A DNA stretch of 64,000 nt from an uncultured Leptospirales bacterium (GCA_964450405.1 CAYVCQ010000001.1:91858-155857); one strand, 5' to 3'; positions 25,869 through 29,461 are shown, counted from the stretch's first letter. Made by a program: numbers and translations. Notes: generated from the sequence alone by a model not told the origin.

Positions 25869-26159
25869 CTAACAGCAGTTCCCCGAAGATCCGCTGCAGT
25901 CGCAGTTTGGCTCTGTCCCTCGAATCATGCCGTTAATAACCGCTGCTGCGCATCCAACTCCCGCATTGACAGAAACCGCACCATAGTCACAGTTCTTTTC
26001 ACACGCACCGCACTCCATGCATCGGTCTTTATCCAGAATTGAAACTTTTTTATTTTCAAGTTTAAACACCGAATGAGGACACACCTCTACACACATTCCG
26101 CATCCAGTACACTTCTCCGGAAAAATCTGTAGTGTAGTAATATTCTTCAGATATTTCAT
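25869..26159 (-). CDS. hgcB: HgcB, the 2x[4Fe-4S] ferredoxin partner in mercury methylation
   Basis: Two CxxCxxCxxxCP clusters (CTGCGMCVEVCP, CMECGACEKNC). C-terminal Cys-rich tail ending ...CDCSGSSGNCC with the vicinal CC pair characteristic of HgcB. 4-nt start/stop overlap with hgcA. Confidence 0.8.
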   Translation of the reverse strand: MKYLKNITTLQIFPEKCTGCGMCVEVCPHSVFKLENKKVSILDKDRCMECGACEKNCDYGAVSVNAGVGCAAAVINGMIRGTEPNCDCSGSSGNCC

Positions 26160-27370
26160 ATCAACCCCCAGTCAGAAATCTTGTATAAAATCAGAAATAT
26201 AAATGACAGCACCGCACCGGCAATATAAACAGGGAAAGCTATTTTAATCTCTCTCTTTACACCAGATAAACTTGTATAGGTTGAAGCTCCGGTAAACTGA
26301 AGCGCCATATACGATGAAAGAAGCGGGAAGATAATCATCATCGATATAATCAGATATATTTTGTACAATTCAAAAACGTCAGCAAAATAAAACAGAGAGG
26401 CAAAGAGCACAACTCCTGCGACCCATCCCTTAACCGCAAATGCCCTGAATGGAATAAAAGGTAGAAATACAGGAGTAAAAAAAGCACCTGTAAAAATAGA
26501 AAATAATCCCGCAGCAATAAAAGGATACCCTTTCACAATCGAATCTCTGAATATTATTCCCTGTGGTGTTAGTCCGAAAAATATAAAAACAAAAAGAAGA
26601 AAAAGTGGAAACTTCGAGAAAATCTGACGCAGTTCAATTGGTGTAAGAATCAATCTATCTATAATATCAAACCTGACACTACGCATTTCAGCGTCGCACT
26701 TATATCCGTTATTTACATATGCACTTAAATCCTCTGCACGTACAGGTCCGTAGGCAACTCTGAAGCCGCTCTTTCTCCTCACCTCGCCCGAATCAATACC
26801 CGGCGCACCAAGTTGCGGGACTATCAGTTTTTTGTGCGAAACAATTTCCGCCAGTCTCACAAGGGAGATCCGTTTCACCAGTTCTTCTGTACCAAATGTC
26901 CCTTTCCCCGCAGCGCACCATACGTTTATACCGTTTGTATCCAGAACAAGAATCCATGCGTTTATACCGTTTAATGAAGCACGAACCGCATCAAAACTCA
27001 TTTTGTAATTTGCTGTTACAAAAACTTCACTGCTCTGACCCGGAGCTCCAACTGCATAGAGTCCCGGCTTCAAAGTATAATTCATCCTGAAGGAACTAAT
27101 CCTGGCCTTAACCGTTTCCCACTTGTCACGAAAAGAGAGAACCGTTGATACCACAGGCAGATCTGCCGCAGCGGTATGAACATAGCCTGTAATAAATGGA
27201 TAATTATACCGGGTCAGAGCATCATTTTCTCTGCCAGGGGTCAGAGCCCCGTTATTTGAGACAGAAATAGTACCGGGGTCAGAGCATCCGCATGAAGATT
27301 TGACCGGAGGTTGAGTTTTAATCACCGGAGAGATCCGTTTATCGGAGGTATTTAACTTTTCAAATTTCAT
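26156..27370 (-). CDS. hgcA: HgcA, the corrinoid protein of mercury methylation (CFeSP-like cap-helix domain plus C-terminal transmembrane domain)
   Basis: Hallmark motif NVWCAAGKGTF = N(V/I)WCA(A/G)GK with the strictly conserved cap-helix Cys. Five predicted TM helices in the C-terminal half. ATG at 27370 is preferred; the track extends to a TTG at 27406 that overlaps arsR. Confidence 0.85.
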   Translation of the reverse strand: MKFEKLNTSDKRISPVIKTQPPVKSSCGCSDPGTISVSNNGALTPGRENDALTRYNYPFITGYVHTAAADLPVVSTVLSFRDKWETVKARISSFRMNYTLKPGLYAVGAPGQSSEVFVTANYKMSFDAVRASLNGINAWILVLDTNGINVWCAAGKGTFGTEELVKRISLVRLAEIVSHKKLIVPQLGAPGIDSGEVRRKSGFRVAYGPVRAEDLSAYVNNGYKCDAEMRSVRFDIIDRLILTPIELRQIFSKFPLFLLFVFIFFGLTPQGIIFRDSIVKGYPFIAAGLFSIFTGAFFTPVFLPFIPFRAFAVKGWVAGVVLFASLFYFADVFELYKIYLIISMMIIFPLLSSYMALQFTGASTYTSLSGVKREIKIAFPVYIAGAVLSFIFLILYKISDWGLI

Positions 27371-27380
27371 ATGCCGCCTT

Positions 27381-27770
27381 TCAACATTTACATTCACTAT
27401 TTTCAATTTTTATTGACCCTAAGAGAGCACCCAGGAGCAGAGACATCTCGGCTATACCCTCAATATTAAGGCAGTAACAGGATCTGGGACCGTCTATCAC
27501 ACCGGAGATCAATCCGACCGATTTCAGTTCCTTTAAATGCTGCGAAACCGTCGACTGAGCAAGGGGAATTTCGAGGACAATCTCACCGCAGATACAGCTG
27601 TTCCTCTGTGCAAGGATTTTCAAGATTTCTATGCGTGCAGGATGAGCGATTGCCTTTGCAAAATCGGCCGTTTTGAGGGAATTTTTGCTGAATATTTCTT
27701 TCTTATTATTTATCATAGTTATCGTATATCGCAAATATACGATAATGTCAAGGAATAATTTTACAGGCAC
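27381..27770 (-). CDS. ArsR/SmtB-family transcriptional regulator directly upstream of hgcAB
   Basis: HTH region FAKAIAHPARIEILKILAQRNSCICGEIVLEIPLAQSTVSQHLKELKSVGLI with a CxC metal-site-like motif. 10-nt gap to hgcA. Confidence 0.75.
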   Translation of the reverse strand: MPVKLFLDIIVYLRYTITMINNKKEIFSKNSLKTADFAKAIAHPARIEILKILAQRNSCICGEIVLEIPLAQSTVSQHLKELKSVGLISGVIDGPRSCYCLNIEGIAEMSLLLGALLGSIKIENSECKC

Positions 27771-27799
27771 TCGGAAAAAGTAGAAAATACAGCTACTGG

Positions 27800-28390
27800 C
27801 TAAAAATAAACAGCAATCCGCTTTAAATATGCCTCTTCGTAAAATAAAAAATTTTTAACACATTCTTTAAATGAAGACCCTAAATTTATAAAGTAGTAAT
27901 GAAGGGTAAACTTAATCTCAAATTCAACATTTTCATCCAGATAACAGTTAATAAAACCAATACTGTTTTTTCTTGGATCTCGCGACAATCCTTTCCTGAC
28001 AGGATTATATCCTATGTACCAGAGTAACCATAAAAGATATTGTTCAGGATTATCAGATTCTTCTATAATTGTAGATCCAAAGCGTTCATTCCAGAATGCC
28101 CCTGTCTCACCCAATGCGCGGTTATATTTCTCAGCTATTCGCGATTTAATGTACTGCATAATCCCTGAAATTGTTTGTTTATCCTCAAGAGTTCGGATTA
28201 CAAGGTGAATATGATTACCAACCGTTTCTGCAGCAATCAGCTCGAAATCATATTTTTCCTGGCACATCTTTACAGCTTCAATAAAATATATATTAGCATA
28301 TCTGCTTCTTAGCAAGTCTCTTTTACCGTGGCATCTTGTAAAACAGTGATATGTTGCTCCCTGAATTATTTTTCTTAATGGTCTCGGCAT
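27800..28390 (-). mobile_element. REP-associated tyrosine transposase (RAYT; IS200/IS605-like TnpA, Y1 HUH family)
   Basis: 196 aa. HUH motif HIHLVI. Typical Y1_Tnp / transposase IS200-like fold signature (YHCFTRCHGK...GNHIHLVI...YIGYNPVRKGL). No adjacent tnpB. Flanked by GGGTCAGAGC-type inverted repeats. Confidence 0.7.
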
Positions 28391-28447
28391 TTATTTCTCC
28401 GTTTTATTCTTTATACGTCTGCGGGACTGAAAAAATAAAAAAAAAGA

Positions 28448-28510
28448 GGGTCAGAGCAAAAAAAATAGAAAATGAGGCTCTGACCCCTTTTTTAGAATAT
28501 GCTCTGACCC
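28448..28510. repeat. REP-like cluster upstream of the RAYT gene: inverted pair GGGTCAGAGC ... GCTCTGACCCC plus a third GCTCTGACCCC unit, each followed by a T-run
   Basis: agagggtcagagcaaaaaaaatagaaaatgaggctctgacccctttttt...tgctctgacccctttttttta. Confidence 0.7.
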
Positions 28511-28570
28511 CTTTTTTTTATTGACACAACTCTTCCTCATTCCTTTTTATAAAATTATAAAGGAAAACAC

Positions 28571-29461
28571 ATGCATATAAGAGAAATACTCGATAATAAT
28601 AAAATTTCGTTCAGTTTTGAATTCTTTCCCCCTAAAACTGAAAAATCTTCAGAGGCGCTTTTTGAAAATATAAGCGAACTGGTAAATCTTAAACCTGCTT
28701 ATGTCAGTGTAACATATGGAGCCGGAGGATCTTCGCGCGATCTTACGAATAATCTCGTTTTAAAAATCCAGAATCAGACAAATCTTACTGTAGTTTCGCA
28801 CCTCACCTGCGTAGGATCTACTGCTGATGAAATACATGCAATACTCAAAAGAGACAGTGAGAATAAAATTGAAAATATCATGGCTCTGCGAGGAGATCCG
28901 CTTGACGGGTCAGAGCATTTTACAAAAACCGAAGGCGGATTCCAGTACGCTTCGGAGTTAGTTACATATGTTAAGAAACATTTCCCGGAAATGGGGATTG
29001 GGGTAGCAGGATATCCCGAAGGACACCCTGAAACTCCGAACAGAATAAAAGAGATGGATAATCTTAAAAGAAAAGTTGATGCCGGAGCTGATTATATATG
29101 TACCCAGCTTTTTTTTGACAACAGGGATTTTTACGATTTCTGCGAAAGGTGCGAAATAGCAGGTATCAGAATTCCCATCATCGCCGGAATAATGCCGGTT
29201 ACATCAATCAAAGGGATGTATAGAATGGCCGAACTTGCTCTTTGCACAAGAATTCCAGCAAAACTCCAGAGGGCAATTGCAAGGGCGGAGGATGATTCCT
29301 ATGTTGAAAAAGTAGGCATCCACTGGGCAACACAACAGGTTCACGAGCTGATAGATAATAACGTAAAAGGGGTTCATTTTTACACACTTAACCAGAGCAG
29401 AGCTTCAAGAGAAATTTATTCATCTCTGGGAATATCCGATTCAATGAGCTTAAACAGGTGA
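28571..29461 (+). CDS. metF: 5,10-methylenetetrahydrofolate reductase
   Basis: ISFSFEFFPPKT and VSVTYGAGGS MTHFR signatures. 296 aa. Confidence 0.85.
   Translation: MHIREILDNNKISFSFEFFPPKTEKSSEALFENISELVNLKPAYVSVTYGAGGSSRDLTNNLVLKIQNQTNLTVVSHLTCVGSTADEIHAILKRDSENKIENIMALRGDPLDGSEHFTKTEGGFQYASELVTYVKKHFPEMGIGVAGYPEGHPETPNRIKEMDNLKRKVDAGADYICTQLFFDNRDFYDFCERCEIAGIRIPIIAGIMPVTSIKGMYRMAELALCTRIPAKLQRAIARAEDDSYVEKVGIHWATQQVHELIDNNVKGVHFYTLNQSRASREIYSSLGISDSMSLNR

Follow-up and report, generated by a model that had tools for sequence, protein, structure and literature searches.

Two questions are raised by the DNA presented here, which belongs to an uncultured Leptospirales bacterium (GCA_964450405.1 CAYVCQ010000001.1:91858-155857) and is called the window below at its full length of 64,000 nucleotides (nt): whether the genes hgcA and hgcB between positions 25,869 and 29,461 form a mercury-methylation system, and whether the adjacent metF and transposase genes have any part in it. 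A sequence-only reading of the same DNA had answered both questions, claiming a complete hgcAB pair with an ArsR-family regulator, an inserted transposase gene and a functional connection to metF. Our analysis indicates a three-gene arsR-hgcA-hgcB operon in a Spirochaetota genome, the products of which very probably methylate Hg(II) under repression by ArsR. All five genes lie at the claimed places, with metF on the strand opposite to the others. Coordinates follow window numbering; hgcB, hgcA, arsR and the transposase gene are encoded by the minus strand, metF by the plus strand. The operon and its parts, with lengths in amino acids (aa), are as follows.

26156..27370, minus strand: hgcA, 404 aa (NF040863, hydropathy, AlphaFold2, Foldseek, homologue starts)
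26894..26926, minus strand: cap-helix motif NVWCAAGKGTF, HgcA residues 149-159
26171..26665, minus strand: C-terminal membrane domain of HgcA, five transmembrane helices (hydropathy, AlphaFold2)
25869..26159, minus strand: hgcB, 96-aa dicluster ferredoxin (NF040864, motif check)
27381..27716, minus strand: arsR, 111-aa ArsR/SmtB repressor (NF033788, Pfam HTH_5)
27719..27751, minus strand: putative arsR-hgcAB promoter and operator (inverted repeat, conservation across loci)

Regarding the identity of HgcA, the protein scored 407 bits on the curated equivalog model NCBIfam NF040863 (cut-off 275, E 4e-122) and 67 bits on the gamma-subunit model for CFeSP (corrinoid iron-sulfur protein), which is under the cut-off of 306. 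A fused HgcAB-like paralogue was considered and rejected, as hgcA and hgcB are two open reading frames (ORFs) that overlap by 4 nt (ATGA, the overlap noted earlier) and the fusion model NF043039 gave scores of 192 bits (HgcA) and 55 bits, both below the cut-off of 285. The length of 416 aa given in the sequence-only reading could not be upheld: it requires a TTG start at 27406, overlapping arsR, and homologues instead begin with the conserved MKFE, which corresponds to the ATG of the 404-aa product of 26156..27370. The cap-helix motif was found as described, with Cys152 encoded by 26915-26917. Of the 120 nearest homologues, 107 contain its 14-mer context, GINVWCAAGKGTFG, and the cap-helix columns are invariant in an alignment of the window protein with 22 relatives (alignment A1). 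The window HgcA keeps the family residue in all 62 invariant columns of this alignment, and its ORF is intact.

The architecture of the protein was examined by Kyte-Doolittle hydropathy, which gave five peaks within residues 250-395, and by an AlphaFold2 model with a mean predicted local distance difference test score (pLDDT) of 74.9, in which the corrinoid domain is well modelled and five long helices (236-266, 274-301, 311-335, 338-359 and 369-400) follow it. The claimed C-terminal domain with five transmembrane segments was thereby recovered, and the protein can be divided into a disordered N-terminal extension (1-~71), a corrinoid-binding domain (~72-235) and a five-helix membrane domain (236-400). 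A Foldseek comparison with the PDB returned the deposited HgcAB model 9a0b_A, of Pseudodesulfovibrio mercurii ND132, as the best match (E 3e-20, 327 columns covering 327/329 residues, 36% identity), followed by CFeSP structures that cover the corrinoid domain only. A sequence search of the PDB with HgcA returned no HgcA structure and CFeSP alone, the computational HgcAB model having come via Foldseek. The CFeSP large subunit (AcsC/CdhE; PDB 2h9a, 2ycl, 4djd) shares the homologous Rossmann-like corrinoid domain (E 5e-12, residues 99-221). Unlike CFeSP, the window HgcA lacks both a TIM barrel and the [4Fe-4S] domain at the N-terminus, carries a membrane domain, and has Cys in place of the cap-helix Thr (NVWCAAGKGTF versus VLTAWAAGKF). 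In short, neither a fused or CFeSP-type paralogue nor a protein lacking the membrane domain was found here.

HgcB scored 125 bits on NCBIfam NF040864 (cut-off 99), with the whole model covered, so that both proteins of the pair exceed their curated cut-offs, and the pair was accepted as complete. A match to HgcB lies directly downstream of hgcA in 80/80 genome loci recovered with the window HgcA as query. The two cluster motifs comprise Cys17/20/23/27 and Cys47/50/53/57. Both had been described as CxxCxxCxxxCP; this is correct for the first, whereas the second is CxxCxxCxxxCD, with the D found also in 12/79 relatives. Cys70 (context GVGCAAAV) is the counterpart of Cys73 in HgcB of P. mercurii ND132, and the C-terminus is the expected cysteine pair, Cys95-Cys96; the roles of HgcA Cys93 and HgcB Cys73 and Cys94/95 are already summarised in the literature. 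The window and ND132 systems have in common the corrinoid domain whose cap helix reads N(V/I)WCAAGKGTF, Cys included, the five-helix membrane domain, an adjacent dicluster ferredoxin with a Cys after the core and a C-terminal CC, and an ArsR-family gene directly upstream. They differ in that the N-terminal extension of the window HgcA is ~59 residues longer (Cys152 versus Cys93), disordered and furnished with a CGC pair, in that the second HgcB motif ends in CD rather than CP, in the window regulator, an ArsR with three CxC pairs for which no orthology to ArsR2 is stated, and in the host, here a spirochaete and in the other case a sulfate reducer.

As a separate observation on the poorly conserved N-terminal extension, a vicinal or near-vicinal Cys pair (CGC, CC or CxxC) occurs in it in 104 of the 120 nearest HgcA homologues, from several phyla. 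In the window it is Cys27-Gly-Cys29 (27284-27292). This pair might be an Hg(II)-capturing or cofactor-loading site, and no discussion of it was found in the HgcAB literature searched.

The regulator ArsR passed NF033788 (62 bits, cut-off 55) and PF01022 (HTH_5; E 5e-11), and its gene ends 10 nt before the hgcA ATG (arsR stop at 27381), as described by the sequence-only reading. The 10-nt and 4-nt junctions imply that arsR, hgcA and hgcB are co-transcribed. Its conserved cysteines form three CxC pairs, one in helix alpha-3 (Cys41/43), one at Cys80/82 and one at the C-terminus (alignment A3); five of the six cysteines are invariant, and the first of the C-terminal pair is displaced by one position in one relative (L019). 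An arsR gene lies directly upstream of hgcA in 8/10 Spirochaetota-labelled genome loci, in L001 and in 4 further contigs. As the earlier reading had stated, the arrangement is known from methylators: in P. mercurii ND132, hgcAB is under the control of an ArsR that responds to As and S-adenosylhomocysteine (SAH), and ArsR-hgcAB pairs have been noted in metagenome-assembled genomes (MAGs) of Spirochaetes (10.1101/2022.10.17.512643; see also PMC7438021), a group in which hgcAB has been reported repeatedly.

Upstream of arsR, the hexamers TTGACA (27746-27751) and TATACG (27723-27728) are separated by a spacer of 17 nt, which is spanned by the palindrome TTATCGTATAT/ATATACGATAA at 27719-27745, a perfect 11-bp inverted repeat with the core ATCGTATATTTGCGAT (27728-27743). 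Across 10 Spirochaetota loci (alignment A2), whose HgcA proteins are just 45-74% identical to that of the window, ATCGT.T.TTT.CGATA is invariant and TTGAC nearly so. The distance from operator to ATG is identical in 8/10 of the aligned loci and one nucleotide less in L017 and L019, and no further copy of the operator was found elsewhere in the 64-kilobase (kb) window. On the strength of this conservation, we infer that the segment is the promoter of the operon. As conserved non-coding promoter sequence lies directly upstream, the start of arsR is placed at the ATG at 27716, giving 111 rather than 129 aa. The -10-like hexamer is 6 nt from this ATG, and there is no Shine-Dalgarno sequence. The short distance suggests that the arsR-hgcAB mRNA is probably leaderless.

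By homology with the ND132 enzyme, HgcA would act as a membrane-anchored corrinoid protein, the cap-helix Cys152 of which is expected to ligate cobalt. HgcB, as a ferredoxin with two [4Fe-4S] clusters, would reduce the HgcA corrinoid to Co(I), and its Cys70 together with the C-terminal Cys pair would handle Hg(II) and methylmercury, so that a methyl group would pass from S-adenosylmethionine (SAM) to the corrinoid and then to Hg(II) held by the HgcB cysteines. ArsR is proposed to bind the palindrome core between the -35 and -10-like hexamers, thereby repressing its own promoter and hgcAB, and a thiophilic metal(loid) or SAH would release it from the operator, again by analogy with ND132. With a canonical hgcAB pair present, the organism can be regarded, as it was in the earlier reading, as a putative methylmercury producer. 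Several points weigh against this interpretation. The level of hgcAB transcript poorly predicts methylation rate, even in ND132. The cap-helix stretch 148-157 was modelled poorly in AlphaFold2 without the cofactor (pLDDT <50). One relative, L004, has hgcAB without arsR, and the regulator is therefore dispensable. The -10-like hexamer TATACG is weak and ends in G, and the promoter was omitted from the output of a generic scan that uses a stricter consensus. Finally, the window ArsR is not a close homologue of ND132 ArsR2, going by a remark in the paper on ND132 about regulators outside the Desulfovibrionaceae.

The gene content of the window also bears on whether a true hgcAB orthologue may have another native role, such as reductive dehalogenation of halomethanes or handling of arsenic and other metalloids, methylmercury being a side product. 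The regulator is of the ArsR rather than the MerR type; hgcAB of ND132 is responsive to As and SAH, and its knockout shows raised sensitivity to As(V); and HgcAB expressed heterologously dechlorinates CCl4 (10.64898/2026.04.26.720869). Among the ~38 larger ORFs scanned, out of 55 ORFs of >=150 aa in the window, no mer or other Hg-related genes were found. The same scan gave no ars and no Wood-Ljungdahl genes, and no ars, dehalogenase-accessory or halomethane genes lie beside the hgc operon. The evidence for another role comes from other organisms only, and such a role is compatible with methylation capacity. We consider this alternative possible, though the less probable account of the locus; a native role other than mercury methylation would leave the prediction of methylmercury capacity unchanged.

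Taken as a methylation operon, the hgc locus is genuine but ordinary, as standard models already recognise it. The suggestion that its annotation would be a functional upgrade is unlikely to hold, since curated equivalog models are available and the NCBI entries of close relatives already bear the name 'MAG TPA: mercury methylation corrinoid protein HgcA [Spirochaetota bacterium]'. The locus adds one more Spirochaetota genome to the putative methylmercury producers, leaves the known HgcAB mechanism unchanged, and would be useful for hgcA reference databases and for reading hgcA reads from anaerobic samples that contain this lineage. What is added here, of modest interest, is the conserved promoter/operator and a transposase-associated repeat inside hgcA. 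The sharply defined operator and promoter of an ArsR-hgcAB operon outside Desulfovibrio make hgcAB regulation beyond the model strain directly testable.

The second question concerns the genes that surround the operon, which are listed below.

28571..29461, plus strand: metF, methylenetetrahydrofolate reductase (TIGR00676)
29718-30710: pta, beyond metF
30928-31002: tRNA-Phe, beyond metF and pta (tRNA/Rfam scans)
24673-25656, minus strand: gene for a hydrolase of the metallo-beta-lactamase (MBL) fold, after hgcB (Pfam Lactamase_B)
25830..25849, minus strand: weak terminator-like hairpin, 20 nt past the hgcB stop (consensus match only), probably the end of the hgc operon

MetF passed the equivalog model TIGR00676 with 346 bits (cut-off 294). 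The sequence-only reading had joined metF and hgcAB into a compact module leading from one-carbon metabolism to Hg, in which the methyl-tetrahydrofolate (methyl-THF) supplied by MetF would load the HgcA corrinoid. Such loading could be direct or run through methionine and SAM. Several facts are in keeping with such a module. MetF feeds the methionine/SAM cycle, ArsR2 of ND132 responds to SAH, and the order metF ... arsR-hgcA-hgcB is conserved among 9 related contigs; the arrangement pta, metF ... arsR-hgcA-hgcB-MBL recurs in L001, L002, L004, L005, L083, L084, L086 and L088. However, all 9 contigs belong to one clade, in which Pta and MetF are 89-95% identical, and the arrangement is therefore best explained as synteny by descent. 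No metF was found within 8 kb of hgcA in any of the 70+ other hgcAB loci examined, which include more distant Spirochaetota, Nitrospirota, Desulfobacterota, Bacillota and Planctomycetota. Furthermore, metF is divergently oriented, is paired equally tightly with pta, and in most relatives is separated from arsR by an 818-aa chemoreceptor (methyl-accepting chemotaxis protein) gene. In vitro, both with lysates of ND132 and with the purified complex, corrinoid methylation and methylmercury formation proceeded with SAM, whereas methyl-THF supported neither (PMC11588087). Carbon monoxide dehydrogenase has been reported as undetected in Spirochaetes methylators, and the ~38 larger ORFs scanned in the window gave no Wood-Ljungdahl genes. 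A functional link between metF and hgcAB is accordingly very improbable. It should not be propagated; metF is a housekeeping neighbour outside the hgc system, and metF, pta and the RAYT-like gene described below are neighbours of the operon by descent.

Close known counterparts are found in MAGs of other Spirochaetota (e.g., HGW-Spirochaetae-5, PGXT01000070). Their HgcA proteins are 60-74% identical to that of the window, their genes likewise run arsR-hgcA-hgcB-MBL hydrolase, pta and metF lying upstream of these, and the promoter/operator is identical. The window differs from them in having no 818-aa chemoreceptor gene, in keeping the RAYT-like gene that several relatives lost, and in a private 12-aa insertion in HgcA. 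That HgcA is unusually fast-evolving, which might be read from its 60-74% identity against the 89-95% of Pta and MetF, was rejected: its core domains show 62-80% identity, comparable to the MBL protein and ArsR, and the overall identity is low because the disordered N-terminus (pLDDT ~30, 23-49% identity among relatives) diverges.

Some further observations were made on this neighbourhood. Wherever a contig of the close clade continues beyond hgcB, the MBL-fold hydrolase gene is next (72-84% identity), and its relatives are also tagged PF23023 Anti-Pycsar_Apyc1. It is not beside hgcAB in more distant lineages, and its adjacency to hgcB is probably synteny by descent. Rfam and tRNA scans gave no riboswitch near hgcA or metF, the sole match being the tRNA-Phe. 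At 2.7 kb from metF, 32132-34618 (minus strand) encodes a fusion protein of a B12-binding radical SAM domain (TIGR03960, 503 bits) and a TIGR03936 domain, which is cobalamin-dependent; no link to hgcAB was seen.

The remaining neighbour is the transposase gene, which is associated with a short repeat that extends into hgcA. RAYT denotes the tyrosine transposases associated with repetitive extragenic palindromic (REP) sequences.

27800..28390, minus strand: gene for a RAYT-like tyrosine transposase of the IS200/Y1 family, 196 aa (Pfam Y1_Tnp)
28439..28519, no strand assigned: repeat cluster 5' of the transposase gene, with three GGGGTCAGAGC copies at 28447, 28477 and 28501
27210..27285, plus strand: three (C/G)GGGTCAGAGC copies within the 5' coding portion of hgcA, at 27210, 27237 and 27275
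27200..27235, minus strand: in-frame 36-nt insertion in hgcA (12 aa, GRENDALTRYNY, HgcA residues 46-57; alignment A1, codon alignment)

The transposase passed Pfam Y1_Tnp with 45 bits and shows the HUH (NHIHL) and tyrosine (WYIGYNPV) motifs (alignment A4); its score of 61 bits on the NCBIfam model REP_Tyr_transpos (NF047646) is under the cut-off of 80. At least 72 relatives with 47-80% identity were found in metagenomes, in many differing contexts, and among these 72 only L088 shares the metF/arsR context. The family has a characteristic frame: in 43/55 loci, GGGTCAGAG occurs in antisense orientation 53-133 nt upstream of the ATG, and in 41/58 loci a sense copy of the repeat is found 6-27 nt past the stop codon. 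In the window, the 5' repeats are kept and the 3' repeat is gone. The earlier description as an inserted RAYT thus holds with regard to a repeat-flanked RAYT-like family, but the protein stays below the RAYT cut-off and the gene is old at its site. It is found at the metF site in both sub-clades (the window and L086 in one; L004, L084 and L088 in the other) and is not found there in L001/L005, L083 and L002. It is therefore ancestral at this site, with several losses, and not a new insertion. What changed recently in the window is that the chemoreceptor gene and the element's 3' repeat were lost, a deletion that brought the transposase gene beside arsR. The transposase gene is thus a bystander to the hgc operon. 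As a side observation, the sole other assemblies with an identical HgcA, the Logan contigs L081 and L082 (SRR13723397 and SRR13723394), break off at both ends after ~2.4 kb, with one end inside the transposase gene, which is consistent with a transposase gene that is repeated or polymorphic in the source community.

The element resembles the REPtrons and TIRtrons (RAYT, 'TIRYT'; Di Nocera et al. 2013, PMC3733652) in having a Y1/HUH gene with inverted short repeats on both sides, as seen in the family frame (the window copy having 5' repeats only), in forming repeat dimers and clusters, and in placing intragenic copies in N-terminal or linker regions, as documented for REPs in the same work. 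In addition, GGGGTCAG fits the GGGGWSAS consensus of the repeats that flank 'TIRYT' genes. Unlike in these systems, no GTAG tag was seen in the repeat copies examined, the protein lies under the NCBI RAYT cut-off, and repeat density drops with distance from the gene.

The distribution of the repeat in the window is markedly local. GGGGTCAGAGC is the most over-represented 10/11-mer of the window, with 12 matches at <=1 mismatch versus 0.43 expected, 11 of which fall within 24.2-30.8 kb; the exact sequence has 6 copies in the ~6.6 kb around the transposase gene (24217-30772) and none in the other 57 kb. The cluster at 28439..28519 is an inverted doublet between A and T tracts, with a fold of -21.2 kcal/mol (z = -6.2). 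Over 21 metagenome loci with 6 kb on each side, repeat density falls from 4.6/kb at <=200 nt from the transposase gene to 0.12/kb at 4-6 kb. This decay suggests cis-local seeding rather than genome-wide dispersal.

Within hgcA, the three copies are oriented antisense to the coding sequence, where they specify ALTR, ALTP and CSDP (at 27210, 27237 and 27275, respectively) in two reading frames; the copies at 27237 and 27275 are exact and that at 27210 has one mismatch. The two exact copies are conserved as such in every transposase-bearing relative and also in L083, from which the transposase gene has seemingly disappeared only recently. In relatives without the transposase, the hgcA copies are degraded to TGTTCTGTGCC, and to TCTGTGACTGC or GCGGCAACTCC. 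The third copy is carried by the GRENDALTRYNY insertion, which is found in 0/22 aligned HgcA relatives, and ~22/24 positions of the inserted DNA match the repeat copy at 28477 by eye. The 11-mer repeat has spread locally, reaching also the dispensable N-terminal linker of HgcA.

These repeats bring up the possibility that this hgcA is compromised, the repeat-derived insertion and the intragenic repeats disturbing its expression or function in a decaying locus. The insertion is unique among 23 aligned HgcA homologues, the repeats are able to form hairpins, and the neighbourhood has suffered the deletion that removed the chemoreceptor gene and the 3' repeat. The insertion is nevertheless in frame and lies within the disordered, variable N-terminal segment, and it is therefore probably harmless. 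The ORF and all of the invariant positions, the cap helix included, are retained, and an identical HgcA protein was recovered in two independent sequencing runs. Moreover, REPs located within genes are usually neutral when they fall in N-terminal or linker segments (PMC3733652). We regard decay of the locus as most improbable.

A more tentative proposal is that the transposase-like gene actively seeds or maintains GGGGTCAGAGC in cis over a few kb, reaching into the hgc operon. Two of the hgcA copies are nucleotide-identical, synonymous positions included, where the transposase is kept and HgcA is just 60-74% identical, and they have decayed where it was lost; the third came as the insertion in the window, and L004, described below, has motif copies without length change. 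We rate this activity as unlikely. If it does occur, a domesticated Y1 transposase would remodel, and perhaps modulate the expression of, a mercury-methylation gene, and such repeat families could arise de novo in place, not by insertion only. Repeats that are maintained in the hgcA coding region, together with a density that decays with distance, provide a small but concrete lead on the origin of REP-like families.

Several minor observations concern the same repeat. In the Leptospirales MAG L004, a copy of the motif inside hgcA at 8601-8611 lies in the structured corrinoid domain and changes EDLxxY to EALTPY, and another inside hgcB at 9412-9422 changes GTEP to GSEP, both with the length unchanged; it looks as if these copies were made in place by substitutions or short-patch conversion. 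Along with arsR, L004 lacks the N-terminal CGC pair (now NKC). In the window, the motif copy at 30762 contributes loop and stem to a hairpin with A and T tracts, GCAGGGG-TCAGAG-CCCCTGC (30745-30790), between pta and tRNA-Phe, and this hairpin resembles a bidirectional terminator made out of the repeat. Two matches with one mismatch were set aside as repeat copies: that in metF (28906) is an ancestral near-match, encoding GSE[HR] in all relatives, and that in hgcA (27032) was not relied on, only exact copies being used.

Other repeats occur farther away in the window. A 204-nt tandem repeat (2.8 copies, 69% match) at 3940-4502 lies within a TPR-repeat protein gene (3490-4680); it is ordinary, mirroring the TPR units of the protein. 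A second dispersed repeat, ~85 nt long and unrelated to the GGGGTCAGAGC family, has three intergenic copies at 11560-11700, 35468-35608 and 40137-40277, all on the minus strand. Within it lie an inverted repeat, GCCGGAATC...GGAGATTCCGGTA, and a stretch of 18 identical nt, CTGCAAAACCGGAATGAC, with 3 matches versus 0.03 expected.

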